A stretch of DNA of 64,000 nt from an uncultured Gammaproteobacteria bacterium. GTDB taxonomy: Bacteria > Patescibacteriota > Microgenomatia > Levybacterales > UBA12049. Location: positions 21,599-85,598 of the forward strand of contig CAZILC010000003.1 of the NCBI GenBank assembly GCA_964540055.1, given 5' to 3'. Made by a program: the position numbers and the translations under genes. Under the pieces are notes generated by a model, which worked only from the letters and a program-made list of their open reading frames with translations, made no database searches and had not been told where the DNA came from. Below, piece by piece: positions 1,570 through 43,315 of the stretch (its first letter is position 1; every line of letters starts with the position of its first letter).

Positions 1570-1632
1570 GGGTATATTATAGGATATTTTAGATTAAATG
1601 TAAACTATAGGTTGTTTTGATGAGTTGGATTA

Positions 1633-4548: not shown

Positions 4549-4557
4549 ACTATAGGT

Positions 4558-5421: not shown

Positions 5422-5481
5422 TATTGGATTCAGAATTTGAAATCACAGGATGGCCAGCGTATTCGCCTGTCAGCACTCATC

Positions 5482-27262: not shown

Positions 27263-28468
27263 ATGAGACTTTATTACCGAGCGGTAACGCAAGATGGAAA
27301 AACGGTTCGTGGCTTAATTGAAGCGAAAGATGTGAGCGAAGCTGCACTCTATCTTCGACAACATCAATTTATTCCTGTTCAAATAATTGCCGAAAACAAA
27401 GCCGGTTTGACAAGATATTTATCGCTCCTCCATCGGACCAAAGCCTCAGATATTGTCTTTTTTACTCGCCAGCTGGCATCAATGATTACCTCAGGACTGA
27501 CGCTTCTGCAAGCGCTAAATGTCTTAAAAAATCAGGTCCAAAATGCAGCTTTGTCTGAAATGATTCAAGGTATTATTACTGATATTGAAGATGGAGCAAT
27601 GCTTTCAAAGGCTCTTGAAAAATATCCATCTGCATTTTCCCCGATCTATGTTGCCCTAGTCAAAACGGCAGAAGCATCAGGTCTTTTGGATAAAGTACTC
27701 ACAAGGCTTGCTGAGAATCTGGAAAAAAAGGAACAGCTAATTCGTACAATTCGAGGGGCGTTATTATATCCGATCATTGTTGTAGTCATGATGGTACTTG
27801 TCATGGTGGTTATGATGATTTATGTCGTGCCGCAATTAACTGTTCTGTATGGTAATTTGAACATGAGTCTCCCCTTACCGACTGTTATTGTCATTGCAAT
27901 GTCAAACTTTTTGACTCATTACTGGTATATCGCAATAACGTTATTTGTAATCATTTCGGTTTATCTTAAAAGCTGGCATAATAAACCATCAGGTAAAAAA
28001 ACAACCGATGCGTATGTTCTCAAGTTGCCGATTTTTGGACAATTGATTCGGGACAGTATGATGGCTGAATTCGCCAGGACGTTATCTCTTTTGATTAGTT
28101 CAGGCTCACTCGTTGTCGAATCTTTGGTAAAAAGCAGTGATGTGGTGGGAAATGTAATTTATAAAGACGCGATTGGTCTGGTCGCCAAACGGGTTGAGAA
28201 AGGCATTTCGATTGGAGATGCAATGGCTGCTTCTCCTCTATTTCCCCCGATGGTTGTTGAAATGGTGAAAATCGGTGAACAAACCGGAAAATTGGATAGT
28301 TCACTTCTTAAAGCTTCTGAATATTATGAACGTGAGGTTGAAGAAAAGGTAAAGACCATGACGACACTGATGGAGCCAATAATTATGGTTCTTCTGGCTT
28401 TAGGTGTGGGATTTTTAATTATTGCCATCATTACACCGATTTATAACCTTATTTCAAATATTAGTTAG
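27263..28468 (+). CDS. pilC: Type IV pilus inner-membrane platform protein PilC (GspF family).
   Basis: Two GspF repeats and 3 TM segments, 401 aa. Confidence 0.9.
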   Translation: MRLYYRAVTQDGKTVRGLIEAKDVSEAALYLRQHQFIPVQIIAENKAGLTRYLSLLHRTKASDIVFFTRQLASMITSGLTLLQALNVLKNQVQNAALSEMIQGIITDIEDGAMLSKALEKYPSAFSPIYVALVKTAEASGLLDKVLTRLAENLEKKEQLIRTIRGALLYPIIVVVMMVLVMVVMMIYVVPQLTVLYGNLNMSLPLPTVIVIAMSNFLTHYWYIAITLFVIISVYLKSWHNKPSGKKTTDAYVLKLPIFGQLIRDSMMAEFARTLSLLISSGSLVVESLVKSSDVVGNVIYKDAIGLVAKRVEKGISIGDAMAASPLFPPMVVEMVKIGEQTGKLDSSLLKASEYYEREVEEKVKTMTTLMEPIIMVLLALGVGFLIIAIITPIYNLISNIS

Positions 28469-28540: not shown

Positions 28541-28933
28541 CTACTGTGCGTTCTGTGCGGTTTCTCCGAGGAATTTTTTGACTTGGGAAACAAGATCTGC
28601 CGGTGTAATATCTGCTTTGATGATAAAAGCTGCTGCACCGCTACTCATGGCTTCTTTTATCAATGGATCATGATCAAGATTGGTAAGAAGAATAATGGGG
28701 CCGTTTTTTACTTGCGGTGGTGTTTTATTAAGAGTAGAAATAATTCCTAATCCATCAAGTTTGGGCATCATGATATCAAGCAGTATGATATCATAACCTC
28801 CTTGTTGCAGTTTGTTCAGTGCCTCTTCACCATTGGAAGCTGTATCAACGGTATACCCTTCATCTTTAAGAACTTCTTCATAGAGTTCTCTGATATACAT
28901 GTCATCATCGACTACTATTACTCTTTTTGCCAT
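28541..28933 (-). CDS. Orphan single-domain response regulator (CheY-like receiver only).
   Basis: VIVVDDD...DIILLDIMMPKLDG...LLTNL...K has the receiver Asp pocket, phospho-acceptor Asp and conserved Lys; 130 aa with no output domain. Confidence 0.85.
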   Translation of the reverse strand: MAKRVIVVDDDMYIRELYEEVLKDEGYTVDTASNGEEALNKLQQGGYDIILLDIMMPKLDGLGIISTLNKTPPQVKNGPIILLTNLDHDPLIKEAMSSGAAAFIIKADITPADLVSQVKKFLGETAQNAQ

Positions 28934-29029
28934 AATAAGCTGATTATTGAAGAATTAGATTGAATTGTCAATACTACTTATTTAAGTTTCGTGATTTCAC
29001 CTCACTAATGAATATCATAAGGAAATCAA

Positions 29030-29263
29030 TTGCAAAAGTTCATGGATAAGTTTACAATGCCTGGTATTATGGGAATAGAATATGAGCAACATATGCAACC
29101 GGAACTGGTGCGCTGTGCAAGTTGCGGCATAAAGTTAGTTCGACCTATGCAAATAACGTGCTCTCCAGATTGTGCCAAAAAAAGAGAAGAGACTACTATA
29201 AAACAAATTCTCAAATTGGGCTTTAGAACACGTCGATTACACATTATTACAAAATTTAAATGA
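29030..29263 (+). CDS. Small Cys4 zinc-ribbon-like protein.
   Basis: CASCGIK...CSPDC pairs; ORF track only. Confidence 0.2.
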   Translation: MQKFMDKFTMPGIMGIEYEQHMQPELVRCASCGIKLVRPMQITCSPDCAKKREETTIKQILKLGFRTRRLHIITKFK

Positions 29264-29569
29264 GAAGGTACGAAAATGCTTGCCAAGTTATAAAAGTATT
29301 TTGTAATTGGTAACCTAGACCATGATACATGGTTGAAAAAATATTATAGGTTATACTACGATGCGTATCCTATGCCTGAGCGAGGTTCACTACCAGAGGG
29401 AAAAATCAATCTTTTTGATCTTGATCCCAAAACCAGATCTTTAGAACGTGTAAGATGGGTTCGAAGTCTGAAAATTTTAAACAAATGATTGAAGTATGCA
29501 ATGTCTTAGGAGATCAAGAAAAACTCCACACCTATACGAGTTGGTTATAACCGCACTTCTTCAGTGAGT

Positions 29570-29998
29570 TTATGCTGATCTGCCGCCGGGATACTGTGGT
29601 CTGGGATTAGGTTTTGGTGGCGGATTTGTAGGTACAGGAGTTCGGCCTTTTGTATAGGTAAATATGTGCGTAATTGCCATTTGATCCGGACGGTTTGGTA
29701 CCGTATCCATAAGTGCATGTGTGAGGATTTCATCGTTTATATGATATTCTTGTGCTGCATTGTTTTTATTAGTGCTATCCACTCCTTTAGCAAACAACCG
29801 TAAAATAGCACGTCCGGTTCGTAATGTGGTTAGTACGCCAGTTTCTCCTGAGTCCTTCAAAGGATAGATTTGAATCTTTTCAGTAATAATGCGCCGCGGT
29901 GGAGTAGTATCGATCAGCATATCAAAAGTAATACCATAATCCCCATCAGCCCGCGTATTAACAATATACGGCGGATGTATCACTCGTTCTTCAATCAT
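29570..29998 (-). CDS. Hypothetical protein with a Pro-rich C-terminal tail.
   Basis: ORF track; no motifs recognised. Confidence 0.4.
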   Translation of the reverse strand: MIEERVIHPPYIVNTRADGDYGITFDMLIDTTPPRRIITEKIQIYPLKDSGETGVLTTLRTGRAILRLFAKGVDSTNKNNAAQEYHINDEILTHALMDTVPNRPDQMAITHIFTYTKGRTPVPTNPPPKPNPRPQYPGGRSA

Positions 29999-30050
29999 AG
30001 GGGTAAAGTAAGCGTATTATATACTGAAAACGCAAAAATTGGACAGAAGT

Positions 30051-31001
30051 TTAAAAATTAATCGGTCCCACGTGTGGAAAGCCCGGCGGACGATCTGGGT
30101 TGAGGGCACCTTTGGCTATACTTTCTCTGATCGCGATTGCTCGTGCATGCTTTTCAACCTGGTTTAAGCCCTCTTGTGTGACCACACGGGACTTATTTCT
30201 TGACAACCGTGCATACATCACGTCTCTTATTCGAGTAACTCTGTCTACCATCGCATCGCTTAAAAAATCCTCTTTTCGCATAAAGACAGAGACGTCATAA
30301 TCGGTAACACCAGGAACTTTATATGTTTCATCAAGCATTTGTTGGATTGCTTGAGGATCGGATACGAGCTCTTTCTCACCTGTGTTCAGTAATGTCTCCC
30401 CCCCGTACGGATGAAAGCCAAGTCTATTTACGGCAAATTTTGCGAGCGTCGGGTTTGTTGTTCCTTCAATAAGCTCCGGCATTTCTTTCACGCGGCTCCT
30501 TTTTCTATATCCTTTTATTGTTCGTATCAGATCGACACTGCCTAAAAACATTGCTTCTTGGGCATGTTCATCCTGTTTTGTACTTACTGCGAATGGCTCG
30601 AAATGTAAATCGATAAATTTATCACCCTTTTTAAGATCTACTGCATAGCTCGGGTCTTTGATATCGCTAACACGATCATTTTTGCCGGTGACATACATGC
30701 TCAGGTTCACTGCGCCGACTGTTCCAAAGGTTGCAAGTTTGTGCATTTTTCTCAGTCGGTCTAAATCAAGGGTAGATAAGACAGAATAGAGACCTTCCGG
30801 ATCATCTTTATTAACACCAAGTGAATCAAGCTCTCGCCTGAGTGTTCTTCGATTAAGTGCTAGTTGAATTTCTTTACGAATCCCGCTTTGTACCTTCAAC
30901 CTCGGCACCTCTGCCTCCGTTTTAACAACAACTTCCCCTTCTGACATCCCGGCACCTTCCACCATACTTTTTAGTGTAATAGGTTTGGAGGCATTTAACA
31001 A
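30051..31001 (-). CDS. Hypothetical protein, 316 aa.
   Basis: ORF track; Arg/Asp/Glu-rich; no motifs recognised. Confidence 0.45.
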   Translation of the reverse strand: MLNASKPITLKSMVEGAGMSEGEVVVKTEAEVPRLKVQSGIRKEIQLALNRRTLRRELDSLGVNKDDPEGLYSVLSTLDLDRLRKMHKLATFGTVGAVNLSMYVTGKNDRVSDIKDPSYAVDLKKGDKFIDLHFEPFAVSTKQDEHAQEAMFLGSVDLIRTIKGYRKRSRVKEMPELIEGTTNPTLAKFAVNRLGFHPYGGETLLNTGEKELVSDPQAIQQMLDETYKVPGVTDYDVSVFMRKEDFLSDAMVDRVTRIRDVMYARLSRNKSRVVTQEGLNQVEKHARAIAIRESIAKGALNPDRPPGFPHVGPINF

Positions 31002-31041
31002 TCTGTGGAGTGGTTTACAGTTCCAACTAAGTACCTGTTAA

Positions 31042-31070
31042 CCACAAAAAAGCTCCCGTTCGGGAGCTCT
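31042..31070 (-). terminator. Rho-independent terminator downstream of the cold-shock gene.
   Basis: Perfect hairpin GAGCTCCCG-TTCG-CGGGAGCTC at 31051-31069, followed on the minus strand by TTTTTTGTGG. Confidence 0.6.
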
Positions 31071-31089
31071 TTGTAGACACGGAAATGTC

Positions 31090-31287
31090 TTATTCCCGTG
31101 TAATGTTTTTGGCACTTGGGCCACGATCTCCGTTGACTACTTCAAAAGTGACGGTGTCACCGGTTTGTAGTTCATCAAAGGTTACACCTTTTAAATCATT
31201 AGCATGAAAAAAGAGGTCTTTTGATTCGCCTTCTCGGCTGATGAATCCAAACCCTTTATCCATTTTAGTTTTAATAGTTCCTTTCAT
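31090..31287 (-). CDS. cspA: Cold-shock protein (CspA family, cold-shock domain).
   Basis: KGTIKTKMDKGFGFISREG...DLFFHANDL are the RNP1/RNP2 motifs; 65 aa. Confidence 0.92.
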   Translation of the reverse strand: MKGTIKTKMDKGFGFISREGESKDLFFHANDLKGVTFDELQTGDTVTFEVVNGDRGPSAKNITRE

Positions 31288-31564
31288 AGAAATGTCTCTC
31301 CTTTCTTAGAACGATTATACCAAAAAAATTACAAAAGATGAATGAACCTTGTTACTTTGGTATATGCTTTTAAATATTATTTACATCTCACCTTTTTGTG
31401 ACACTTTTCTATTACACTATTTTTTTATTGCATATATAATATAATAACTATAAAATGCGCGGAATCTATCCTGCTTGACAATTACTACAGGATGTAATAT
31501 ACTTGAGTTTCATAATTTATTTACTAGTTTCTCTGGCTGCGATTAGTTAATAAATACCAAAAAC
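31288..31564. promoter_or_regulatory. AT-rich divergent intergenic region: the csp promoter with a long 5' leader, and the promoter for the 31565 gene.
   Basis: 277 bp at about 25% GC between divergent genes. Csp genes classically have long structured 5' UTRs. Confidence 0.3.
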
Positions 31565-33385
31565 ATGGCATTAAAAGAACACAGTCAAGTTCCTTCTGGT
31601 ATGTCACTTTCTCCAGAAAGTGGTACCGGTGGTCGTCGCAATCGCGGACGTCATAGACGCTCGGGTAGTTTCGTTCCTAATTTAAGGTTATTTCAAAGAT
31701 CTGAGCATAAAATTACCGGTCAAACAGATACTCCCAAACCTCCAAAGTATAATATACTTAACGTAACAAGCTTGTTTGATGCTAATGTTGCGGGCGGAGC
31801 TGTTCCGACTATTGCATCTGCAGAAATATCACAGAGTCCTGATTCTCAAAAACCGCAACATGATTCTTTAGAAACATTGTTAGCATCTTCACCGCAAGAT
31901 AGATATCGTGCTTTTGCTGAACATCCGCAAAGACTTCATTTTTTCCTTTCTGCTGTTGTCCCAAGATTACTTGATATGACTGAGGAAAATCAAGCTGGAC
32001 ATACTTCTGGAGATAAATGGAAATATTTTGCGGGTTTGACTGAAGCATATTCTATAGTTGAAGCAATTCCAGATCTTGATGGAAGGTTAGATGCTGTTGC
32101 TCAATCTAACAGAGCAAATGGTGAGCAGCTTTGGCTTATTGAAGATGCAATGCCTTCAATTGAGGAAGATAAAAGAAGAATCTTTGCTGAAACTGAAGAT
32201 TTTGGTGCACAGGAAATGCAGCCTCTTATAAGTCAATCAAAAAGAGCTGTTGAAGACCAATTAGGACAACTTAATATTAGACTTGAAGTAGAAAAACAGG
32301 CACCGCCATCCCCTCTCGTAAAAGATCTCGCTCAAATGAATGCTATGATTCAAATATTTAGAGCAGATGGTTTTGAACATGTTACAGATCATCGAGAATT
32401 AGCAGAACTACAGCAGGATACAGATTCTACTACAAATTCTAAAAAAAGAATTCGAAGAAAAGAAAAGAAAGAAATTATTAATCGGCATATTGATGGATTA
32501 TTGAGTGCATATGTTGTTTCAACCGGTAAAGTAGCCGAAGATGATATAGAAGTTTTGCCATACTATCGAGAACGATTTACTCAATTGCAAACAAAAATTG
32601 AAGCTAGTAATGTACATCTTGAAGAAGAATTACCTGATTATACGCGTGCTCAACAGATCCGGGAGATTATTACAGCAGTAAATAATTTTGACAGATTTAC
32701 AAAAACAGCAACCATTGAAAAAGAATCCGGTATAACAGAAGCCGTAAAAAGGGATTCAAATAGTGCTAGAAAGAGAGAAAATGCAATAAGTTGGGGTTAT
32801 GCAGGAGCAGTTGAACTTCCTCAGGTTGCTAGTGGTTGGGTAGGAGGAAGTGTTGTGCATATCACAGGAGTACGTGATTTATTAGCTCTTGGTATCATTG
32901 CAGGAAGTACAAGACTTGCTTCTTTGGGTATTCTTGCTTTAAAAGGAATACAAAATGAAGGTCTGGTTACTAAAACTGGTGTTGCAACGGATCCGGGTTC
33001 AAAGTGGTCAAAGGAACATCTGGGTAAGGCTTGGCCGGGATTTGTGGCATTTAATGGCGTTATTGAATTGCTTTTCCTTGGAGATGCAGCTTTAGGACTT
33101 CCCGGGCTGGGTATGGCTGGGGCTCTTGCTATCGAAGCTTCTACTAATTTGTCACCTTGGGGCTTACCCAGACAAATACTAGAAGTGACGGGTATCAAAA
33201 AAGTGAAAGATCGAAAAAAGAAGGAAAAAGTTGGAGACCATATAGTGTCATTTAATTTGCCTGCAATTCAAAGAAACGATTCAGATCCTACTATGACTGA
33301 GATACCAGATCAAAGCGATCCCCCTTTACCCAATTCAATAGTTATGCAACCGGGTGAAGAAGTAAGATTATTGGAACCGGTTTAA
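31565..33385 (+). CDS. Hypothetical 606-aa protein with an Arg-rich N-terminus and a C-terminal Gly-zipper-like hydrophobic region.
   Basis: N-terminal GGRRNRGRHRRSGSF. The C-terminus carries GxxxG-rich amphipathic segments (ALGIIAGSTRLASLGILALKG, LGLPGLGMAGALAIEAS). Confidence 0.5.
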   Translation: MALKEHSQVPSGMSLSPESGTGGRRNRGRHRRSGSFVPNLRLFQRSEHKITGQTDTPKPPKYNILNVTSLFDANVAGGAVPTIASAEISQSPDSQKPQHDSLETLLASSPQDRYRAFAEHPQRLHFFLSAVVPRLLDMTEENQAGHTSGDKWKYFAGLTEAYSIVEAIPDLDGRLDAVAQSNRANGEQLWLIEDAMPSIEEDKRRIFAETEDFGAQEMQPLISQSKRAVEDQLGQLNIRLEVEKQAPPSPLVKDLAQMNAMIQIFRADGFEHVTDHRELAELQQDTDSTTNSKKRIRRKEKKEIINRHIDGLLSAYVVSTGKVAEDDIEVLPYYRERFTQLQTKIEASNVHLEEELPDYTRAQQIREIITAVNNFDRFTKTATIEKESGITEAVKRDSNSARKRENAISWGYAGAVELPQVASGWVGGSVVHITGVRDLLALGIIAGSTRLASLGILALKGIQNEGLVTKTGVATDPGSKWSKEHLGKAWPGFVAFNGVIELLFLGDAALGLPGLGMAGALAIEASTNLSPWGLPRQILEVTGIKKVKDRKKKEKVGDHIVSFNLPAIQRNDSDPTMTEIPDQSDPPLPNSIVMQPGEEVRLLEPV

Positions 33386-33572
33386 GGTCGGGTTTTTGTC
33401 AAGTTTCTTGATAAGATTAAATATAAGATACCAAAGAACTTTAGGAAATTATTATTAGATACTATATAATTCCTCATATGGTGGCATAAAGTACTTTTAG
33501 TGAGCTTATTCAAATTCATTTATAGAACGACCAGATTGACTTTCTTTTAGACTTATAGTATAATAATTATTT

Positions 33573-34568
33573 ATGGCACCTGAAATTCGTAAACCAAGTA
33601 GTCGATTCAGAGCTTTTAGAATTTCTGGCTCACGAGGGCCAGATGCTTCTAGTGGTCCTAACAATTTTCCGCTTGCTGCAGAAACTTCAAGCGACGGCAA
33701 TGCTGCTGGTCATCGAAGACGTCCCTTTGCAACTTTAGCAGAAGGTTTACAAGTGCCAATATTTCATAGAAGTAGTTTCCGTCCCCTTCGTGGCTCAAGA
33801 AGAGAAAGTGATCCATCGAAAGACAAAGTACAACAGCTTCGATTAAAGGATGGAAGAAGTGTAGAAGCAGAAGCTGTTATTGAAGGCAGAATCTGGAGAG
33901 TAGATCTACGACAACTTCTCGCTGATAAAAACCCGGATTGGCAGGCTGAAGTAACACGAGTTGCACAAGAAGCCCCAGACGTGTCTTTTCGTGGCGGGGA
34001 TGTCGGAACTTCTGCTGAAGCAGCTGATTTTGTAACGCAATATCAACCAACCACTGGTGATGTAATTGCCGAAAGATTACCCTGGTACCTCGAGCTGGTT
34101 CAGAACGAATTCACTGAAGTAGGAAAAATGTTAAGTGGAGACCCGTCATTACATCTAGGAGATGATTTGGAACATTCCTTAAATTTCAACTATACGCGTG
34201 GTCGAAGACCAGGTGAAAAAACGGGACGTAGGTATGAAAAACATAAGGATCGTAATCCATGGACTATGCTGACCGCGATACTTACTGTCAAGGAAGGTTT
34301 AGGTGGTAAAACCAATTTCTTTAAAACTGTTAAATCCCGTATAACAGGTAAAGAAAGATATAAGACAATAGCTTCATTGCGACCTGAAGCAGGATATGGT
34401 GTCTTCTTTAACGGTCATACAGTTCATAGTGTAGAAGAATACCTAGGAATGGAAGATGTTCACGGTCCACGACTTGTTAATCCAGCTGATATGTATACAG
34501 ACGCTATTCCACAAACAGTAGATAAAGGATTTAATAATACTATCTTGAAACCCCAAGATGGTAAGTAA
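33573..34568 (+). CDS. Hypothetical 331-aa protein with an Arg-rich N-terminus.
   Basis: N-terminal RKPSSRFRAFRISGSRGPD...GHRRRPF; no motifs recognised. Confidence 0.5.
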   Translation: MAPEIRKPSSRFRAFRISGSRGPDASSGPNNFPLAAETSSDGNAAGHRRRPFATLAEGLQVPIFHRSSFRPLRGSRRESDPSKDKVQQLRLKDGRSVEAEAVIEGRIWRVDLRQLLADKNPDWQAEVTRVAQEAPDVSFRGGDVGTSAEAADFVTQYQPTTGDVIAERLPWYLELVQNEFTEVGKMLSGDPSLHLGDDLEHSLNFNYTRGRRPGEKTGRRYEKHKDRNPWTMLTAILTVKEGLGGKTNFFKTVKSRITGKERYKTIASLRPEAGYGVFFNGHTVHSVEEYLGMEDVHGPRLVNPADMYTDAIPQTVDKGFNNTILKPQDGK

Positions 34569-34629: not shown

Positions 34630-35544
34630 ATGGAAGAACAAGCAACATCATCCCCTTCCGTAACTCCACCACCTGATACTAGTGCTCAGGAACCTGCTCA
34701 ATCTCATTCGCCTACTCCCCCATCTCAATCAGCTCCCAAACATTCTAAAAATCGTTTTATTTGGATCTTTGTCCTTATTGTATTTTTCTTAGGCTTTCTT
34801 GCAGTTGCAGCCTGGTATTTCCAGAATCAACTTCAGAAAACCGCGTTGGAAAATAAGCCGACAACTGAAGCTCCTGCAGCGATGTCTCCAAAAGAATTGA
34901 TAATCGGTACCGATCCAACATTACCTCCTATGGAATTTCTTCAGAATGGTAAATTTGTCGGATATGATATCGATTTGGCGAACTTGCTGGCCAAACAAAT
35001 GGGCGTAAAAGTCGAATTCAAAAATGTAGTTTTCGACAATATCTTCAGCGCTCTTCAGGATCATCAGATCGACCTTATCGTCTCAGCTGTTACCATAACG
35101 CCAGACAGACAGGCAAAATATGATTTTTCGGAGCAATATCTTAATGCAGGACAAGTAATTATTACAAGAAAAGACAATACAACAATTACCAGCGTTAAAG
35201 ATCTTCAGGGAAAGAAAATTGGTGTCCAAAAAGGAACTACCAATGAAACCCAAGCACTTAAGTATACTTCCTCAACATTAGTTATTCGATATCCAGATTT
35301 TGTCCAGGCAACAAAAGCGCTTGTGAATGGTCAGGTCGATGCCATATTTGATGATTTACCAAGCTCCAAAGGAATCACGCAAGACAATCCAACACTTAAG
35401 ATCGCGAGTGATCCATTTACCGATGAATATTATGGTATTGTTTTTAGAAAAGGCGATCCGGAAGTCAAAGAAGTAAATAAAGCACTTGATGCACTCCGTG
35501 TACGAGGCTATCTCACAGAATTAAAGAATAAATGGCTTGATTAA
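34630..35544 (+). CDS. Membrane-anchored family-3 solute-binding protein (polar amino-acid type), copy 1.
   Basis: P/S/T-rich N-terminus plus a TM anchor, then an SBP_bac_3 fold (GTDPTLPPMEF...GYDIDLANLLAK...LIVSAVTITPDRQ...GVQKGTT). No ABC permease or ATPase genes are adjacent. Confidence 0.8.
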   Translation: MEEQATSSPSVTPPPDTSAQEPAQSHSPTPPSQSAPKHSKNRFIWIFVLIVFFLGFLAVAAWYFQNQLQKTALENKPTTEAPAAMSPKELIIGTDPTLPPMEFLQNGKFVGYDIDLANLLAKQMGVKVEFKNVVFDNIFSALQDHQIDLIVSAVTITPDRQAKYDFSEQYLNAGQVIITRKDNTTITSVKDLQGKKIGVQKGTTNETQALKYTSSTLVIRYPDFVQATKALVNGQVDAIFDDLPSSKGITQDNPTLKIASDPFTDEYYGIVFRKGDPEVKEVNKALDALRVRGYLTELKNKWLD

Positions 35545-35562: not shown

Positions 35563-37464
35563 ATGAAATTTTCAATCCGAACTAAACTGCTCATTGGGTT
35601 CGCAACCCTTCTCGTCTTATCTATAATCTTTCAAGTATTTACTTTTGCAATTATTAATCAATATGTTTCTTCTCAAATTACCACATTGCAGGAAGTTGAA
35701 GCCAATAACGGGGCAACTGATATATTAAATTTTTTTACAAAACTTAACAATGAAAGTCTCGGGCTTGCAATAGGATATAGTCAGGGTCTTGAACAGTTTG
35801 AAACAGTTGCAAAAATTACCCTTAAAAAAAATAATTATATTACAAAAATTACTATCCTCTCCCCTCTCGGTCATGAATTAGTTGGTTTTGATGCAAACGG
35901 CAAGATTTTACAAGACAAACTTTCATATGAAGTATTTACCTCACCATTCAAAACGGCGGTTTCCGGGACCCCAACAATTTCGCAAGTGTATTATTTGCCA
36001 AATGATCCGGGCCCGCTTATTGATACGTTTTATCCGATTTTTGATGCTCGGCACATGGTTATCGGTGTCGTTAAAATGCGGGTAAATTTGGACCAATTGC
36101 GAAGTGAACTCGCCCATATTCGTTTGGGTCATAACGGGTATATTTATGTTGTTGATAGTAATGGGCTTCTTATTTCGCACCCATCTCAAGCGTATGTACT
36201 GCAAAGACCGATTCTCTCAAACCGCAATGTCATTGCTGATGCGTTATCTAATTCATCTCCCACCTTTAGGGCAGAAGAATACACCAATGAACAGAATACA
36301 TCAGTTATTGCAAAAGCCATCAAAATTTCAGATTATAATTGGGTTGCGGTTTTTGAACAACCTACCTCTGAAGCATTTAGTTTCTTAACTCTCATTAGGA
36401 ATTTCTTTTTGATTACTTTTGGAATTTCTACATTTTTCCTGATATTGATTGCGCTTTATTTGAGTGAAAATTTGAGTCGCCCAATTAGAAAATTACAGCA
36501 CTCAGCAGAGCAGGTAGAAAGCGGCCTCATGCAAAAAATACTTATCATTAGAAGTGGTGATGAAATTGAATCATTATCGCATTCTTTCGCTTCACTCATT
36601 GACCAACTACTTGAAAGAGAGCATCTTTTGGAGAAAATTTCCACGCAATTGCGAGATGCAAACGAAAAATTAAAAGCTCTAGACAAGCTCAAAAATGAAT
36701 TCGTGTCTGTCGCTTCTCATGAACTTCGTACGCCAATGACTGCTATCAAATCCTATCTCTGGCTTGCATTGGAAGGGAAAGGCGGTAAGCTTAATGATAA
36801 ACAACAATATTATATTTCACGCGGATATAGTTCAGTTGATAGATTAATCAGGCTTGTAAATGATATGCTCAATATCTCACGTATCGAATCAGGTCGTATC
36901 TCAATAGTTTTTGCCTCAACCGATCTCATCAAATTAGTACAGGAAGTAATTGATGAAGTGCTTCCTCGCGCAAAGGAATTAGAAATTGCAGTTGAAGTCC
37001 ATAAACCATCCCAGCTGCCACACGTTCTCGCCGATCCGGATAAAATAAAAGAGGTACTTATCAATCTTATTGGAAACTCACTCAAATTTACTCCCAAAGA
37101 AGGCAAAATTACGATTGATTTTGTCAAAAAAGGTGCATTTGTCCAGACGCGGGTTAAAGATACAGGTGCGGGTATTACGGCTGAGGACAAAGATAAGCTT
37201 TTTCAGAAATTCGGACTCCTTCCTGGATCATATATTACCAATCAAACGAGTACCCATCTGGGGACAGGACTGGGATTGTATATCTGCCGTGCGATTATTG
37301 ATCTGCATCATGGAGAAATCAAGGCGGAATCAGAAGGTCGCAGCAAAGGTTCAACGTTTTCTTTCACTCTCAAGGAATTTAATGAATCGGATTTCCAGAC
37401 GCTTAAGAAACAAAATAATGAAGAGGATAAAGACTCGATGGAATTGATACACGCAAATATTTAA
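35563..37464 (+). CDS. Sensor histidine kinase with a periplasmic Cache-like domain, copy 1.
   Basis: TM1 at about aa 8-30, a roughly 250-aa extracytoplasmic domain, TM2, a HAMP-like linker, the HisKA H-box SHELRTPMTAIKSY and HATPase_c boxes (LIGNSLKFT, DTGAGI, GTGLGL). Confidence 0.9.
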   Translation: MKFSIRTKLLIGFATLLVLSIIFQVFTFAIINQYVSSQITTLQEVEANNGATDILNFFTKLNNESLGLAIGYSQGLEQFETVAKITLKKNNYITKITILSPLGHELVGFDANGKILQDKLSYEVFTSPFKTAVSGTPTISQVYYLPNDPGPLIDTFYPIFDARHMVIGVVKMRVNLDQLRSELAHIRLGHNGYIYVVDSNGLLISHPSQAYVLQRPILSNRNVIADALSNSSPTFRAEEYTNEQNTSVIAKAIKISDYNWVAVFEQPTSEAFSFLTLIRNFFLITFGISTFFLILIALYLSENLSRPIRKLQHSAEQVESGLMQKILIIRSGDEIESLSHSFASLIDQLLEREHLLEKISTQLRDANEKLKALDKLKNEFVSVASHELRTPMTAIKSYLWLALEGKGGKLNDKQQYYISRGYSSVDRLIRLVNDMLNISRIESGRISIVFASTDLIKLVQEVIDEVLPRAKELEIAVEVHKPSQLPHVLADPDKIKEVLINLIGNSLKFTPKEGKITIDFVKKGAFVQTRVKDTGAGITAEDKDKLFQKFGLLPGSYITNQTSTHLGTGLGLYICRAIIDLHHGEIKAESEGRSKGSTFSFTLKEFNESDFQTLKKQNNEEDKDSMELIHANI

Positions 37465-37544: not shown

Positions 37545-38534
37545 ATGGATCAGCAAAATCAATCATCACCACCGCAAAATCCACCTCAAGATTCCAGTAT
37601 GCCGTCAAATCAACCAGCTACGCCTGTTCCTCCTCCTCCATCTCCTACTCCAGGAATGCCAACTGATCCATCTTCATCCTCTCCAACGCCTACCCCTGCT
37701 TCTTCTGTGCCCCCAGCTATACCACCAAAACATTCAGGAAGCAAATTACCTTGGATAATTTTGCTCATTATCTTATTTATCGGTTTTCTCGGTCTTGCGA
37801 CGTGGTACTTTCATTCACAATTACAAAATCTAGTAGGACCAACGCCAACACCCTCGCAATCTGCGGCAAACACACAATCAAAAACACTTGTTATAGGAAC
37901 TGACCCTACTTTTCAGCCAATGGAGTACAAACAAGATGGGAAAGTGGTTGGATATGATATTGATCTGGCTAATTTGATTGCAAAGCAACTTGGAGATAAA
38001 GTTACTTTTAAAAATATCACGTTTGACAATCTCTTTACCGCGCTGCAGCAGCATCAAATTGATATGATTATATCTGCCGTAACAATTACACCAGAAAGGC
38101 AGAAAAAGTATGCTTTCTCCAAAGAATATCTCAATGCAGGACAAGTAATTATTACCCAGCAAGCAAATACTGTCATTAAATCCCCGACTGATCTCAAAGG
38201 TAAAAAAATTGGTGTGCAGCAAGGAACGACTGATGAGTCCGAAGCGCTTAAATATACTGACGCCAATCTTGTGATCAAATATCCGGATTTTGTTCAGGCA
38301 ACAAAGGCCTTGGTTAGCGGAACTGTTGATGCGATCATAACAGATTTACCCAGTGCACAAGGAATTGTTGGTACAAATCCTACACTTAAAATTGCAAGTG
38401 ATCCATTTACCAATGATTATTATGGCATTGTGTTTAGAAAGGGAGATCCTGAGGTTGAACAAGTCAACAAAGCTCTTGATTCACTCAGTGTTAGAGGCTA
38501 CCTGACAGAACTCAAGCATAAATGGTTAGATTAA
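37545..38534 (+). CDS. Family-3 solute-binding protein, copy 2 (paralog of 34630..35544).
   Basis: Roughly 70% aa identity to copy 1 across the SBP fold, with the same anchor architecture. Confidence 0.8.
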   Translation: MDQQNQSSPPQNPPQDSSMPSNQPATPVPPPPSPTPGMPTDPSSSSPTPTPASSVPPAIPPKHSGSKLPWIILLIILFIGFLGLATWYFHSQLQNLVGPTPTPSQSAANTQSKTLVIGTDPTFQPMEYKQDGKVVGYDIDLANLIAKQLGDKVTFKNITFDNLFTALQQHQIDMIISAVTITPERQKKYAFSKEYLNAGQVIITQQANTVIKSPTDLKGKKIGVQQGTTDESEALKYTDANLVIKYPDFVQATKALVSGTVDAIITDLPSAQGIVGTNPTLKIASDPFTNDYYGIVFRKGDPEVEQVNKALDSLSVRGYLTELKHKWLD

Positions 38535-38552
38535 AGCAACATTGAAAAATGA

Positions 38553-40433
38553 ATGAAACTCTCAATCCGTCGTAAACTACTTATTGGTTTTACCCTCCTG
38601 TTAATACTTGCTTTTCTTATCCAGGGTTTTTCGTTTGTGATTGTCCAACAATATATTTCCGCAAAAATTACCGCGCTTCAAGAGGTTGAGGCACAGGACG
38701 GTGCAAATACAATTTTGAATTTTTTTACCCAAATGAATGCAAGAAGTTCCGGGCTCGCTCAAACCTACTATCAGGATCCAAAAAATTTTGTAACTATAGC
38801 CCAATATATACTTAAAAATAACCAATTTATTAACGAAATAACCATTTTGTCACTTGTGGGGCATGAATATGTGCAAGTAGATCATAAAGGTCCAGTCCCA
38901 CCAGGGAAACTTACGTATGAGGTCTATTCTGATCCTTTTAAATTAGCTGTTGCGGGAACTCCGGCAATCTCACAAGTTTATTATCTCGGGAAGAATTCTG
39001 ATCCCTATATTGATACCTTTTATCCGATTCTTGCAAAAAGACACACAGTGATCGGGGTAATTAAAATGCAAGTTAATTTAAATCAACTTCGGAGCGATCT
39101 GTCGCATATCCGCCTTGGCAACAATGGGTATATTTATGTTGTTGATAAATATGGTGTGCTTATTTCTCATCCCTCACAATCCTACGTGCTGGACAGACCA
39201 GTTCTCACAAACCGAAAAATCATAAAAAATGCGCTCAATAGGAGATCTTCTACTTTTCATGATGAACAATATGTTAATGAGAAAAATGTGCAAGTAGTTG
39301 CGAAAGCTATGCGGATTTCAGATTATAATTGGGTTGTTGTGTTTGAACAGCCGACTTCGGAGGCATTTAGTTTTCTTGATTTTATCCGGAATTTATTTTA
39401 CGTAACAGTTGGTGTTTCATTCCTTTTTCTCTTACTGATTTCACTATTTTTGAGTGAAAATCTTACCCGGTCAATTAGAATTTTACAACGTTCTGCCGAG
39501 CAAATCGAACGCGGACAAAAGATTACTTTTACTCCTATCAAAACTGGTGATGAAATAGAATCGTTATCACGCTCCTTTTCATCTCTCGTTGATCGATTAT
39601 TGCAACGCGAACATTTATTGGAGCAGATTTCTTCACAAATTAAATATACCAATGAAAAATTACAAATCATGGATAAGCTCAAAACCGAATTCGTTTCTGT
39701 TGCATCACACGAGCTTCGTACGCCAATGACAGCTATTAAATCGTATCTCTGGATGGCTCTTAAGGGTAAAGGAGGCGAACTCAATGAAAGGCAAAAGTAT
39801 TACATTGAACGAAGTTATAATTCAGTCGATAGATTGGTTCGTTTAGTTAATGATATGTTGGATATTTCCCGAATTGAATCAGGACATTTTAAGCTTGAAC
39901 TTGCGAATGTTGATATTGCAATCTTAGTTCATGAAGTTGTAGAAGAGCTGTTACCACGAGCAAGTGAATTGGGTATTACTATCACTGTTCAGGATCAAAA
40001 TACAGCGCTTAATGTCCTTGCTGATCCGGATAAAATCAAAGAAGTTTTGTTTAACTTATTTGGTAATGCGCTTAAATTTACACCACGAAGCGGAAATATT
40101 TCCGTTAAATTTGCTCAAAAAGGTGAATTTATCGAAACAAAAATCAAAGATACCGGCGCCGGTATTGCTCCTGACGATATGAGCAAACTATTTCAAAAAT
40201 TTGGCCTTATGCCAGGCTCTTATATTACCAATCAAAATTCATCCAATGGAACGGGACTCGGATTATATATCTGTCGCTCAATTATCGATTTGCATCAGGG
40301 AACAATTCGGGCAGATTCACCGGGAGTCGGTAAAGGCGCAACTGTCACCTTTACACTCAAAGTCTTTCATGAAGCAGAATTAGAAATTGTTAAAAAGCAA
40401 CAAATGGAAGATAAAAAATTACTTGGACTGTAA
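38553..40433 (+). CDS. Cache-type sensor histidine kinase, copy 2 (paralog of 35563..37464).
   Basis: Same architecture, with H-box SHELRTPMTAIKSY and roughly 60% aa identity to copy 1. Confidence 0.9.
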   Translation: MKLSIRRKLLIGFTLLLILAFLIQGFSFVIVQQYISAKITALQEVEAQDGANTILNFFTQMNARSSGLAQTYYQDPKNFVTIAQYILKNNQFINEITILSLVGHEYVQVDHKGPVPPGKLTYEVYSDPFKLAVAGTPAISQVYYLGKNSDPYIDTFYPILAKRHTVIGVIKMQVNLNQLRSDLSHIRLGNNGYIYVVDKYGVLISHPSQSYVLDRPVLTNRKIIKNALNRRSSTFHDEQYVNEKNVQVVAKAMRISDYNWVVVFEQPTSEAFSFLDFIRNLFYVTVGVSFLFLLLISLFLSENLTRSIRILQRSAEQIERGQKITFTPIKTGDEIESLSRSFSSLVDRLLQREHLLEQISSQIKYTNEKLQIMDKLKTEFVSVASHELRTPMTAIKSYLWMALKGKGGELNERQKYYIERSYNSVDRLVRLVNDMLDISRIESGHFKLELANVDIAILVHEVVEELLPRASELGITITVQDQNTALNVLADPDKIKEVLFNLFGNALKFTPRSGNISVKFAQKGEFIETKIKDTGAGIAPDDMSKLFQKFGLMPGSYITNQNSSNGTGLGLYICRSIIDLHQGTIRADSPGVGKGATVTFTLKVFHEAELEIVKKQQMEDKKLLGL

Positions 40434-40447
40434 TATAATTAAAGAAC

Positions 40448-41287
40448 ATGGTATTTTATATTTATTTTCTTATTTTTATTCTGGGTGCAGCTATTGGGAG
40501 TTTTTTGGGAGTCGTTGTAGACAGACTTGCCAGCAAAGAATCTTTCTGGATGGGCAGGTCGCATTGTGACCATTGCAGACATAAATTGCAGCCGTTGGAT
40601 CTTATACCAATTTTGTCATTCTTTCTTTTACATCGTAAATGTCGGTATTGTCATAAAGAACTCAGTTTGTTTTATCCTTTTATTGAACTGCTTTCAGGTT
40701 TTTTTATTCTTCTCAGTTGCTGGGTTATATTTCAAGATTCGATTATGGCATTTTCGCAATTGTCATTGCAATTATTGGCGCTCTACTATTGTTCACTTAT
40801 CGCTTCATTGCTGGTAATATTTTTCGCTGATCTCAAATATGGCATTATTCCCTTCAAAATAGTACTTTTTTCTTTCTTACTGACGCTTATCTGGCAAATT
40901 TTGCTTCCTCATTTGGGTTTTAGTTTGTTGGCAGTGCAATTTTTGGGATTACAGACAAATCTTCTGTCAATTGTGCTTTCTGCAATTGGTGCAGGCGGAT
41001 TTTTCTTTTTAATATTTCTTTTTACCAAAGGTCGTGGGATGGGTTTTGGCGATGTTGTATATGCTTTCTTGATGGGTTTTATTTTAGGGTATCCGACGGT
41101 TATTGTCGGACTATACTTCGCTTTTGTGACAGGTGCTGTTGTTTCTCTTTTATTAGTATTTTTCAAAAAGAAAAAATTCAGAGGGGGTACTATTCCGTTT
41201 GGTCCGTTTTTAGTTCTTGGCACTATTTTAAGTTTGTTATATGGAGCACAAATGATAGATTCTGCCCTACGATTGCTGGGGATTTAA
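40448..41287 (+). CDS. pilD: Prepilin peptidase PilD (A24 family) with an N-terminal zinc-binding CxxC-x21-CxxC.
   Basis: CDHCRHKL...CRYCHKEL, then 6-8 TM with conserved Asp residues; 279 aa. Confidence 0.85.
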   Translation: MVFYIYFLIFILGAAIGSFLGVVVDRLASKESFWMGRSHCDHCRHKLQPLDLIPILSFFLLHRKCRYCHKELSLFYPFIELLSGFFILLSCWVIFQDSIMAFSQLSLQLLALYYCSLIASLLVIFFADLKYGIIPFKIVLFSFLLTLIWQILLPHLGFSLLAVQFLGLQTNLLSIVLSAIGAGGFFFLIFLFTKGRGMGFGDVVYAFLMGFILGYPTVIVGLYFAFVTGAVVSLLLVFFKKKKFRGGTIPFGPFLVLGTILSLLYGAQMIDSALRLLGI

Positions 41288-41330
41288 GATTTGATTTGCA
41301 GGAAGTACCATAAGTAGTAATAATAAAAGT

Positions 41331-41840
41331 ATGAAAAGAAATTCAGGTTTTACTCTGATTGAAATGATTGTTGTCATAGCTCTGTTGGGAATTATTTCAA
41401 CAGCCATTCTTGCGACAATTGATCCATTCGGACAGCTGCAGAAATCAAACGATACACGACGTAAGGCAGATCTGGAGTCTATTCAACATGCTCTTGAGTT
41501 ATATTACCAAGACAATGATAAATATCCGGATTCGAGCGCTGATTTTCAAATTTTGAATGGAGCTACGACTGTTGCCTGGGGAAGTTCATGGCAGCCTTAT
41601 ATGGCAACACTTCCCAAAGATCCATCCCTTTCCAGCTCGTATGTTTATTACTCGCCTTCAACTGCTAATGGACAAACGTATTATCTTTATGCCAATCTAC
41701 AAAGGGGCAGTAAAGATCCCCAAGCGTGTAATAAAGGAAATGCATGCGCAAGTATTGGAAGCGCGTCAGGATTTCCAGCAGCGAATGCGTGTGGTGGAAC
41801 ATGTAATTACGGGGTATCAAGTACTAATGTTTCACCGTAA
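41331..41840 (+). CDS. Type IV pilin (likely the major pilin) with a prepilin N-terminal cleavage/methylation motif.
   Basis: MKRNSGFTLIEMIVVIALLGIIS is the class III signal peptide G/FTLIE; the C-terminus is Cys-containing. Confidence 0.75.
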   Translation: MKRNSGFTLIEMIVVIALLGIISTAILATIDPFGQLQKSNDTRRKADLESIQHALELYYQDNDKYPDSSADFQILNGATTVAWGSSWQPYMATLPKDPSLSSSYVYYSPSTANGQTYYLYANLQRGSKDPQACNKGNACASIGSASGFPAANACGGTCNYGVSSTNVSP

Positions 41841-41858
41841 TTAGTAGTTTGCGAAAAT

Positions 41859-42311
41859 ATGTTTTATATGCAAAGTAAAAATAAAGGCTTTACGTTAATT
41901 GAACTGCTGATTGTGCTTGCAATTATTGGTGTATTGGCGTCATTTTTGCTTGCGAATCTTATCGGCGCAAAATCCCGCGCGCGAGACGCTCAAAGGAAAT
42001 CAGATTTGCGACAAATTCAGTCAGCTCTTGAATTATATCGTTCAGATCAAGATGCATATCCTACGAACAATCTTGTCACCTGTGCCCAACCTTTTACCAA
42101 TGGCGGAGCAACATATATGAAGAAAGTTCCCTGCGATCCTTTAAACACCGGAAATTTTGTGTATACCTATAATCAGACCGGAGGTGGCTCAGGATATACT
42201 TTGGTGGCATGTTTGGAGAATGTTAATGATTCTCAAAAGGATAAACCAGCCAATGACAGTACTTATTGTAATGGCACCTCGAACTGGTCTATCACATTGA
42301 ACAATCCGTAA
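41859..42311 (+). CDS. GspG/PilA-like pseudopilin.
   Basis: KGFTLIELLIVLAIIGVLAS...DAQRKSDLRQIQSALELY is the GspG-like N-terminal helix. Confidence 0.75.
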   Translation: MFYMQSKNKGFTLIELLIVLAIIGVLASFLLANLIGAKSRARDAQRKSDLRQIQSALELYRSDQDAYPTNNLVTCAQPFTNGGATYMKKVPCDPLNTGNFVYTYNQTGGGSGYTLVACLENVNDSQKDKPANDSTYCNGTSNWSITLNNP

Positions 42312-42814
42312 TGAACAGGCTTTTTAAAAAATTTTCATCTCGCTATTTTGACTATCCAGTTTCCGCAGGCTTCACTATTTTTGAATTGTTGGCGGTTTTC
42401 GCGATTATCGGGATTATGACCTCGTTGGGAATTGCTGCATATAATTCATATAACGGTACGCAGCTTGTGCAATCAAGCGCGACTGATGTTGTAACCATGT
42501 TGAATATAGCAAAATCTCATTCTCTCGCTCAGGTAATTCCACCCAGCTGCGGAACCAATTCAGTAACCGGCTATCAGGTAGATGTAACGCCCAATGGCCA
42601 GCAATATACTCTTTCAGCCATTTGTTCGGGCAAACAGATACTCACAACCAACAATCTGCCGCCAAATATAACGTTTGCAAATAGCTCCACGCCATCAGTT
42701 TTTTTTACCATCTCTGACGGGACAGTTGCAACAGATGCGACAATAACTATTACTGGTTTCGGCAGAACAAAAAATATTACTGTCAGTCAAACAGGAAGCG
42801 TGTCTAGTAATTGA
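42311..42814 (+). CDS. Minor pilin (GspH/FimT-like).
   Basis: AGFTIFELLAVFAIIGIMTSL prepilin motif. Confidence 0.6.
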   Translation: MNRLFKKFSSRYFDYPVSAGFTIFELLAVFAIIGIMTSLGIAAYNSYNGTQLVQSSATDVVTMLNIAKSHSLAQVIPPSCGTNSVTGYQVDVTPNGQQYTLSAICSGKQILTTNNLPPNITFANSSTPSVFFTISDGTVATDATITITGFGRTKNITVSQTGSVSSN

Positions 42815-42850
42815 GTTGAAATATTTGAATTTAACGGTGATAATAGAAGT

Positions 42851-43315
42851 GTGATACGTAAGAAACTCCAGAGAGGCCAGACATTAATTGAGACGTTGGC
42901 CGCATTAGCAATAATAGGTATGATTGTTTCAGCAATTGGTGTTGTCGTAACAACAGCATTAAGCAATGCTAAATATGATTCAAATATAACGCTTGCGACT
43001 AAATATGCCCAACAAGGATCTGAGCTTGTCCAGCAAATTCGAGATGATAATTACACAACCTTTCAGGGATTAAGTGGCATTTATTGTTTGAACAAGGGAC
43101 AAACAACGCTCGGATCACCGAGTAATTGTACAACACCAAATGTAGACAATTTTATTCGCACGGTAACAGTACAGCAAAACGGATGCGGTGCAAATATAGC
43201 GCAAGTTACTGTAGCGGTAACTTTCACAGATGGGAAATGTACAACTGGTGTGTATTGTCACAAGCAAACAGTTTTGACCTGTCTTTCAACAGTTAATCCA
43301 GTGCAAGTACCATGA
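42851..43315 (+). CDS. Minor pilin (GspI/PilV-like).
   Basis: RGQTLIETLAALAIIGMIVSAIG prepilin motif. Confidence 0.6.
   Translation: MIRKKLQRGQTLIETLAALAIIGMIVSAIGVVVTTALSNAKYDSNITLATKYAQQGSELVQQIRDDNYTTFQGLSGIYCLNKGQTTLGSPSNCTTPNVDNFIRTVTVQQNGCGANIAQVTVAVTFTDGKCTTGVYCHKQTVLTCLSTVNPVQVP

Follow-up and report, generated by a model that had tools for sequence, protein, structure and literature searches.

We analysed a 64,000-nucleotide stretch of DNA from a Microgenomatia genome (assembly GCA_964540055.1, contig CAZILC010000003.1, positions 21,599 to 85,598), hereafter the window, and within it a block of four open reading frames (ORFs) between positions 29570 and 34568 that an earlier note had described as uncharacterisable. 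The window is a segment of a bacterial chromosome, with gyrA/gyrB, aminoacyl-tRNA synthetases, RecG and a class A penicillin-binding protein (PBP), and it carries a type IV pilus locus with PilB, PilT, PilC, a prepilin peptidase and five pseudopilins, plus two tandem pairs of a solute-binding protein (SBP) and a dCache kinase. The four ORFs encode proteins of 142 (29570-29998, minus strand), 316 (30051-31001, minus strand), 606 (31565-33385, plus strand) and 331 amino acids (aa; 33573-34568, plus strand), exactly as first listed, and the cold-shock gene reported between them is there. The block is two unrelated things side by side in the pilus locus: the front half of what is very probably a conserved cassette (31565-34568), formed by the 606-aa gene and by a gene that almost certainly encodes a 2-oxoglutarate (2OG)/Fe(II) dioxygenase, and a slot (29570-31001) that follows the response regulator gene of the locus.

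Coding status and composition of the four ORFs

Coding potential was scored with a codon model specific to the reading frame, for which 20 confirmed genes served as the training set; these were themselves scored leave-one-out. The four ORFs scored 0.16-0.20, within the range of the confirmed genes (mean 0.21, minimum 0.075) and above all 18 overlapping or antisense decoy ORFs (mean -0.12, maximum 0.078); they are therefore real genes. A compositional contrast had been proposed between these proteins, said to be rich in Arg, Asp, Glu and Gly, and neighbours rich in Lys, Ile and Asn. It held for Arg, which makes up 6.3-9.4% of the four proteins against a median of 3.4% (Mann-Whitney p=0.001), but neither the enrichment of Asp, Glu and Gly nor the depletion of Lys, Ile and Asn was significant (p=0.05-0.65). 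The ratio R/(R+K) was raised as well, at 0.50-0.65 against 0.34 (p=0.005). Cysteine does not occur once in the 1395 residues of the four proteins, compared with 0.6% in the other proteins of the window (P=2e-4), an absence that our analysis leaves without explanation.

The four proteins had been taken for a family, with similar members at 12032-13778 and 54740-55726. An all-against-all BLASTP comparison (E<=0.01) of the four with the products of 12032-12979, 12957-13778 and 54740-55726 found no mutual similarity, so that the four proteins are not one family. Scans of the four proteins and six look-alikes against Pfam, PHROG, NCBIfam and PADLOC gave no robust family, and their sole leads were weak 2OG matches for the 331-aa protein. 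The statement that no motif can be assigned is wrong for the 331-aa protein.

The 331-aa protein is a predicted 2OG/Fe(II) dioxygenase

The first clue was a match of the 331-aa protein to the PADLOC '2OG' model (E=1.5e-6) and to a PHROG family (E=6e-4), which raised the suspicion of an HxD...H motif. An exhaustive HMMER search with this protein then yielded 54 relatives, the best of them 50% identical (E=3e-61), and all of them align to residues ~96-325. In an alignment of 50 sequences the residues H224, D226, G245, G274, H285 and R300 are invariant. The HxD...H iron triad (H224, D226 and H285, encoded at 34242-34244, 34248-34250 and 34425-34427) is thus present and conserved throughout, and the invariant R300 (34470-34472) lies 15 residues past H285, at the start of a strand that the structural model places at 300-308. 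Enzymes of this superfamily have a basic residue, Arg or Lys, for the C5 carboxylate of 2OG some 10-15 residues beyond the distal His, a role for which R300 is suitably placed. Among the 50 relatives, 38 match Pfam PF13640 (2OG-FeII_Oxy_3; best E=1.6e-9) and nine match HalD. The N-terminal half of the domain has conserved positions specific to the subfamily: W123, P170-W171, N204, N206 and Y221-E222. A word-indexed search with the same protein returned only itself, although homologs 36-50% identical to it are cluster representatives in the same collection.

An AlphaFold2 (AF2) model built from the alignment of the relatives has a predicted local distance difference test score (pLDDT) above 90 for residues 82-325; it shows a double-stranded beta-helix (jelly-roll) fold with the motif residues on the expected strands. 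In a Foldseek search of this model against the PDB, 275 matches were obtained at E<=1e-3, and the best 50 of the 275 are all 2OG oxygenases, led by HalD, HalB, BesD and the BesD-like lysine hydroxylase 7jsd (E=1e-9 to 1e-7) and followed by SnoN/SnoK and Tpa1. A viral structure library gave matches to generic 2OG oxygenases only. At the level of sequence profiles, the family matches prolyl-4-hydroxylases (P4H), PHD2, PiuC, WelO5 and the Hal/BesD enzymes in the PDB; the best match is 4iw3, then come P4H (2jig, 6t8m), PHD2 and PiuC-type hydroxylases, and the P4H/PHD matches (E=8e-5 to 0.05) fall mostly in the C-terminal half.

Taken together, relatives, motif, model and fold matches make it almost certain that the 331-aa protein is a 2OG/Fe(II) dioxygenase, with its catalytic double-stranded beta-helix domain encoded at 33813-34568 (plus strand), and the assertion that no function can be read from the block is wrong in this case. 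The active site is predicted to be intact and the protein to be catalytic. H224, D226 and H285 would bind Fe(II), and R300 would bind 2-oxoglutarate; 2OG would undergo oxidative decarboxylation, and the resulting Fe(IV)-oxo intermediate would hydroxylate a substrate, which may be an amino acid or a protein side chain. Fe/2OG halogenases carry HxG/A instead of HxD, which leaves a site for the halide. In spite of the likeness of fold we do not class the protein with the halogenases, as all members of the family have the carboxylate ligand D226; with HxD kept throughout, the enzyme is expected to hydroxylate rather than to halogenate.

The dioxygenase gene very probably belongs to a conserved cassette in the pilus locus

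Next, we looked at the gene context on the contigs that encode relatives of the dioxygenase (L048, L050, L051, L052, L053 and L055); several other such contigs were too short to give any. In the window, the PilC gene (27263-28468) adjoins a gene for a single-domain response regulator (28541-28933, minus strand; Pfam Response_reg E=1e-26). Downstream of the block, the dioxygenase gene is followed by genes for a membrane-anchored solute-binding protein (SBP_bac_3, 34630-35544, plus strand) and for a histidine kinase with dCache, HAMP, HisKA and HATPase domains (35563-37464, plus strand), both recognised by Pfam. A second SBP and kinase pair lies in tandem with the first (37545-40433, plus strand; Pfam) and is 67% and 62% identical to it. 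The prepilin peptidase gene (40448-41287, plus strand), which matches the Peptidase_A24 gene of L055, opens the right-hand context, which together with the five pseudopilin genes spans 40448-43851 (plus strand) and has one-to-one matches in L055 (Peptidase_A24, N_methyl/T2SSG).

The same order recurs in the relatives. A homolog of the 606-aa protein precedes the dioxygenase on L050, L051, L052 and L055, and the dioxygenase is followed by an SBP_bac_3 gene on L048, L051, L052, L053 and L055; on L051 and L055 the SBP is followed by the kinase, and PilC and the response regulator lie upstream. The first SBP and kinase of the window are 62-68% and 61-66% identical to their counterparts in L055, L051 and L052. 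L055 is syntenic with the window gene for gene, from PilC and the response regulator through the 606-family, dioxygenase, SBP and dCache kinase genes to the prepilin peptidase and five pilins; it carries a single SBP/kinase pair in place of the tandem duplication. These comparisons argue strongly for a conserved cassette in the order 606-family, dioxygenase, SBP and dCache kinase, located between PilC/response regulator and prepilin peptidase/pilins.

The 606-aa protein represents an unnamed family

For the first gene of the cassette, that of the 606-aa protein, homologs lie immediately before the dioxygenase gene in L052 (619 aa, E=5e-52), L051 (568 aa, E=3e-45) and L055 (512 aa, E=2e-49). 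In L050 the homolog is shorter (471 aa, profile E=4e-15) and its gene overlaps the dioxygenase gene by 4 nt. All four are large proteins without a Pfam match. The family alignment outlines the conserved motifs MPS.EE.K..IFAETE, KH.NGLLSA, ESG.TE, KTGVA.DPG.K and PRQI.E. The 606-aa protein has a disordered basic N-terminus (residues ~1-100), a helical core (~100-400) and a disordered C-terminal tail. Two hydrophobic Gly/Ala-rich segments, 439-457 and 494-512, are conserved and flank the conserved KTGVAxDPGxK loop; with KD19 hydropathies of 1.77 and 1.64 they are borderline transmembrane candidates. The C-terminus had been described as carrying glycine zippers. It is indeed rich in Gly (17%), but residues 410-545 hold no excess of GxxxG (2, against 3.7+-1.6 in shuffled sequences), and the small-xxx-small pattern occurs 12 times against 15.5+-2.7 in shuffles.

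Searches of PDB sequences with the protein and with the family profile gave no meaningful match, nor did a scan of viral contigs give any. The AF2 model from the single sequence (pLDDT 36.7) conveys secondary structure only and is unusable for a fold search. Within the window, the 606-family and dioxygenase profiles each match only their own gene. As with the dioxygenase, the word-indexed search returned the 606-aa protein itself only and missed homologs of ~30% identity. A consensus scan placed a sigma-70-like promoter (TTGACA-17-TATACT, 11/12 positions) at 31475-31503 (plus strand) and a terminator-like hairpin with a T-run at the stop codon of the gene (33377-33391, plus strand), both as pattern matches.

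The 606-family gene and the dioxygenase gene diverge faster than their neighbours

We then compared the products of the window with those of L055, L051 or L052. Identities of the neighbouring proteins are 76-84% for PilC, 79-83% for the response regulator, 59-73% for the SBP, 61-66% for the kinase, 66% for the prepilin peptidase and 61-67% for the pilins. In contrast, the 606-family protein is only 27-29% identical by BLASTP (29-30% by local alignment) and the dioxygenase 29-36% (36-40%). The description of the block as fast-evolving is accordingly correct for the 606-aa and 331-aa genes (27-40% against 61-84% for their neighbours). The divergence does not follow that of PilC: by PilC, L051 is the closest to the window (84%), yet the 606-family copy of the window is ~30% identical to that of every relative, while the copies of L051 and L055 are 49% identical to each other. 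The closest relative of the window's dioxygenase (50%) is P0006, which is encoded on an unplaced 1.4-kb contig. Since the catalytic residues are kept despite this divergence, the pair is not decaying, and the pattern points to accelerated co-evolution or allelic replacement instead.

In view of the constant adjacency of the two genes, their 4-nt overlap in L050 and their joint divergence, the 606-family protein may be the physical partner or the substrate of the dioxygenase. We put the chances of a functional coupling between the two, as their synteny suggests, at about even. The pair might also feed into, or share control with, a circuit of SBP, kinase and response regulator that governs the pilus; this link to the pilus or to sensor signalling is tentative, and we lean against it. 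A long shot is the fuller proposal that enzyme and partner co-evolve as one module, shaped by diversifying selection or by frequent exchange of alleles, which would couple O2-, 2OG- and iron-dependent hydroxylation to the circuit that controls the pilus of an episymbiotic bacterium of the candidate phyla radiation and act as a strain-specific determinant of host recognition or attachment.

Among the alternative explanations, the one that survives best concerns the substrate. The dioxygenase could be a protein hydroxylase of the P4H, PHD or PPHD type that modifies its 606-family partner, a pilin or a translation factor, and so serves as a sensor of O2, 2OG or iron. The ranking of the PDB profile matches is in agreement with this, with 4iw3, which we take to be a Pseudomonas prolyl hydroxylase solved with EF-Tu, ahead of P4H, PHD2 and the PiuC-type hydroxylases. 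So are the close linkage to a partner whose long, disordered tails contain Pro, the joint divergence of the two, the ORF overlap in L050 and the presence of Tpa1 among the fold matches. However, the nearest folds are those of enzymes acting on free amino acids (HalD, HalB, BesD and 7jsd), nine of the 50 relatives match Pfam HalD, the next gene encodes a binding protein of the amino-acid type, and the P4H/PHD matches are confined to the C-terminal half with E values of ~1e-4 to 0.05. We therefore regard a protein-hydroxylase sensor as possible but doubtful. On the narrower question of whether the substrate of the dioxygenase is a free amino acid rather than a protein, the odds are about even.

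The Arg-rich N-terminus of the dioxygenase

The dioxygenase carries an Arg/Ser/Gly/Pro-rich disordered extension at residues 1-80 (33573-33812, plus strand; pLDDT 34-53). A near-consensus promoter, TTGACT-17-TATAAT (11/12 positions; a pattern match from the consensus scan), lies at 33536-33564 (plus strand) and ends 8 nt 5' of the ATG at 33573, which implies a leaderless or near-leaderless mRNA. The DNA of the tail has a guanine-plus-cytosine (GC) content of 0.454, against 0.26-0.28 in the flanking intergenic DNA, and values of.55,.64 and.17 at the first, second and third codon positions; an in-frame stop lies two codons before the ATG, and the codon score of the tail is low, yet above the wrong-frame range. 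The promoter position, the GC content, the codon periodicity and the stop just upstream all favour translation, and the tail is probably translated. A GTG at codon 61, which would leave the tail untranslated, is a possible alternative start that we judged less likely on the same four grounds. The arrangement of promoter and start codon is not peculiar to this gene. TATAAT-like boxes 4-14 nt before the ATG were found for 15 of 49 genes of the window, against 7.4+-2.5 expected, including those starting at 11647, 33573, 40448, 57548 and 62444, and Shine-Dalgarno motifs are not enriched (5, against 4.0 expected). This enrichment of near-start -10 boxes without one of Shine-Dalgarno motifs suggests that leaderless or near-leaderless mRNAs are widespread in the window.

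The earlier note had quoted two basic N-terminal peptides, both of which are in the sequence, and had likened them to transit or nuclear-localisation signals; the proteins, it suggested, might be effectors delivered to a host cell or components of an undescribed conflict system. In both flagged tails the basic n-region lacks the hydrophobic h-region that a Sec or Tat signal has within about the first 40 residues, so they are not Sec or Tat signals. There is no hydrophobic segment in the 331-aa protein (maximum KD19 0.59) and none before residue 439 in the 606-aa protein, and the two tails share no motif. A nuclear localisation signal or transit peptide has no obvious meaning for a bacterium of the candidate phyla radiation (CPR). 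In the orthologs of the dioxygenase the tail is missing or different, with ~75-90 residues in L055 and L052 and ~15-45 in L051 and L050 and without sequence conservation. Moreover, the most Arg-rich N-terminus of the window is that of the class A PBP (57548-59875), which begins MDYRSTRRPRTRRRKSF... and continues into a membrane anchor; since this is a housekeeping protein, Arg-rich N-termini are not special to the flagged proteins.

Three observations are in line with effectors or a conflict or defence system: the 606-family/dioxygenase pair diverges very fast, like arms-race genes; the slot of L055 carries NB-ARC and PIN genes; and the locus is a type IV pilus locus, CPR pili being thought to mediate host contact (PMC6744442). 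Against this, and besides the properties of the tails, PADLOC-DB v2 gave no match for the 142-, 316- and 606-aa proteins and only a generic 2OG accessory model for the 331-aa protein, the four genes are not one unit, and one of the four proteins has an ordinary cytoplasmic-type enzyme fold. The effector or conflict-system idea is thus without direct support and, in our opinion, improbable.

The slot after the response regulator varies between relatives

The left part of the block lies in a slot whose left boundary is the response regulator gene. The six closest species representatives keep MgsA...PilB-PilT-PilC-response regulator and then have 5-9 locus-unique ORFs each. L004 and L005 carry genes for a HAD hydrolase, an acyltransferase, an HbpS-like protein, a YggS-like pyridoxal phosphate protein, an isochorismatase and an aromatic amino-acid lyase; L055 carries PIN, aldo-keto reductase and NB-ARC genes. 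The slot of the window comprises a doubtful 73-aa ORF, the gene of the 142-aa protein (29570-29998, minus strand), which has a Pro-rich C-terminal tail, that of the 316-aa protein (30051-31001, minus strand) and the cold-shock gene csp (31090-31287, minus strand; Pfam CSD E=5e-21). What the slot contains changes from one examined relative to the next. No counterpart of the cold-shock gene was found near PilC in the relatives, its position being seen only in this genome; it is preceded by a Shine-Dalgarno sequence, aaaggagag, which is unusual in the window. The start of the 316-aa ORF is more likely the ATG at 30965, which gives 304 aa, as called in the public assembly (Logan gene call).

No homologs of the 142- and 316-aa proteins were found in the loci of the relatives, Pfam, PHROG, NCBIfam, PADLOC, the PDB or viral contigs, in searches of limited sensitivity. 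Two metagenome scans made in the course of the analysis found nothing. The word-indexed search with the 316-aa protein returned only itself, but the same search gave false negatives for the 606-aa and 331-aa proteins, so that orphan calls from that tool alone are unreliable. The description of these two genes as unknown and lineage-specific still stands.

Two further observations concern the neighbourhood. The 636-bp gap between the response regulator and the 142-aa gene (28934-29569) contains the 73-aa ORF (29042-29263, plus strand), which has a CxxC...CxxxC motif and is annotated in the public assembly; its coding score of about 0 and the lack of a Pfam match make it a doubtful gene, and the rest of the gap has no Rfam match. 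In L055 a PIN-domain gene and a gene for a 764-aa NB-ARC (STAND) protein lie at 1339-6287 and a MazE-PIN pair follows the kinase at 12084-12754; genes of toxin-antitoxin or defence type thus visit the neighbourhood in L055, and there are none in the window.

Horizontal acquisition had also been proposed, and the block might be a recently acquired genomic island or mobile element, as the slot content after the response regulator is different in every relative and the csp, 316-aa and 142-aa genes occupy this position in this genome only. Several results contradict it. Synonymous codon choice in the four genes follows the rest of the window (per-gene z -1.65 to +0.82), and the GC content of the block is ordinary (0.39-0.44, as elsewhere in the window). 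Neither a tRNA gene nor an Rfam family was detected in the window, and domains of integrases or transposases are absent. The flanking repeats are short (<=27 nt at 67-94% identity, which is chance level) and mark no element boundaries, viral contigs gave no matches and half of the block is syntenic in relatives. A low GC content at third codon positions was considered as a sign of foreign origin and rejected, since only two of the four genes are low and values as low occur in several housekeeping genes, such as PheS and PheT. An island is therefore slightly less probable still than effectors or a conflict system, and the 142- and 316-aa genes are real and natively adapted. Native codon usage together with conserved synteny in relatives, a combination that the earlier note had named as refuting its reading and as pointing to ordinary lineage-specific core proteins, was found for two of the four genes, those of the 606-aa and 331-aa proteins.

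Finally, it is very improbable that the 142- and 316-aa ORFs are mere open frames that arose by chance or antisense to a gene. They have no detected homolog, and spurious antisense ORFs in the window reach 259 aa. However, their coding scores (0.193 and 0.194) are like those of confirmed genes and exceed the maximum of the decoys (0.078), neither is overlapped by a longer competing ORF, open frames of such length have chances of 1e-4 and 1e-9, and both were annotated by an independent gene caller.

Other Arg-rich or unassigned ORFs of the window

The ORFs outside the block that had been likened to the four proteins score as coding, with values of 0.21 (12032-12979, plus strand), 0.12 (12957-13778, minus strand) and 0.17 (54740-55726, minus strand); they have no family match and are mutually unrelated. 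The region 12032-13778, presented as one, consists of two convergent ORFs that overlap by 23 nt, and L008 has a different Arg-rich ORF of 214 aa at the position equivalent to 12032. An Arg-rich protein of 971 aa is encoded at 1633-4548 (R/(R+K) 0.64), with a weak GntR-type winged-helix match at residues 35-87 and a weak PHROG match at its C-terminus. At 19661-20284 and 20332-21441 lie adjacent paralogs, 50% identical over ~190 aa and unique to this genome among the 19 loci compared; the 207-aa member has no Arg and 12.6% Gly, and the pair is possibly surface or pilin-like.

Discussion

Our results support the explanation that a dioxygenase and its 606-family neighbour form part of a conserved cassette of the pilus locus, beside an unrelated variable slot, and we give this explanation as a whole a probability of about 0.72. 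Several points weigh against it. The cassette is missing near PilC in six close relatives (L004, L005, L008, L006, L010 and L030) and is therefore not universal. The 331-aa protein itself has no Pfam match even at E<=10, and its assignment to the dioxygenases consequently depends on relatives, motif and model. The nearest solved structures have TM scores of 0.6-0.66 at 10-18% identity, values too low for a substrate to be transferred from them. In the window, the 606-aa gene has promoter- and terminator-like sites of its own and the 331-aa gene its own promoter, so that co-transcription of the two is not obvious, and synteny is the single line of evidence for the proposed functional coupling within the cassette. 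A membrane association of the 606 family is uncertain, given the borderline hydropathy and a conserved Arg inside the first hydrophobic segment. Finally, the failure to find homologs of the 142- and 316-aa proteins comes from searches that were shown to miss real homologs.

Most of a seemingly uncharacterisable block has nonetheless become tractable, as it contains one recognisable enzyme and one syntenic family with a fixed genomic partner. The methodological lesson is that a word-indexed search gave a 'self only' result for proteins that have homologs at 30-50% identity. As a lead for further work, the position of the pair within the pilus and two-component locus is preserved, as are the catalytic residues of the dioxygenase, but identities are down to ~30%, against >60% for the pilins. 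A central role in host association is ascribed to the type IV pili of CPR bacteria (PMC6744442), and for this reason the pair is a reasonable candidate for a function in specificity or sensing. A shallow search of the literature found nothing relevant on an association of the dioxygenase with the 606 family in a pilus locus, and the association appears to be undescribed. With the dioxygenase, a very large superfamily gains a new member, which comes from a small subfamily not studied before.

Among known systems, the best structural matches of the 331-aa protein are BesD, HalB and HalD (PDB 6nie, 7u6h-j, 7jsd; PMC10041140), with which it has in common the double-stranded beta-helix fold (TM 0.58-0.66, normalised to the target) and a catalytic domain of similar size (~240 aa); a carboxylate serves as iron ligand in it as in 7jsd. 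The substrates of HalB and HalD are free Lys and Orn (PMC10041140). The 331-aa family differs from the halogenases in its invariant HxD, where these have HxG/A, and identity is only 7-15%. The genes of BesD, HalB and HalD lie in biosynthetic clusters, whereas the 331-aa gene lies in a pilus and two-component locus, and the disordered Arg-rich tail of ~80 residues sets its product further apart. With P4H, PHD (EglN1), PPHD and the PiuC-type enzymes (PF13640) the protein shares the HxD...H...R motif and its spacing, but it falls below the Pfam thresholds, matches them mainly in the C-terminal half and has a subfamily-specific N-terminal half.

As for the locus, histidine kinases are known whose partner is a solute-binding protein, periplasmic or extracytoplasmic, as are CheY-like single-domain regulators of type IV pili (PilG/PilH). 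The window likewise joins SBP_bac_3, a dCache-HAMP kinase and a receiver-only regulator near pilB, pilT, pilC, the prepilin peptidase and the pilins; it differs from SBP-linked kinase systems in having an Fe/2OG dioxygenase and a helical partner of ~500-620 aa conserved immediately before the SBP gene. The families enriched in Microgenomates consist mainly of hypothetical proteins, and many CPR bacteria carry type IV pili (PMC6744442). Such 'dark matter' is an apt description of the 606 family and of the 142- and 316-aa proteins, but unlike such hypothetical families, one protein of the block resolves to a known enzyme superfamily and another to a syntenic family with a defined partner and high divergence.

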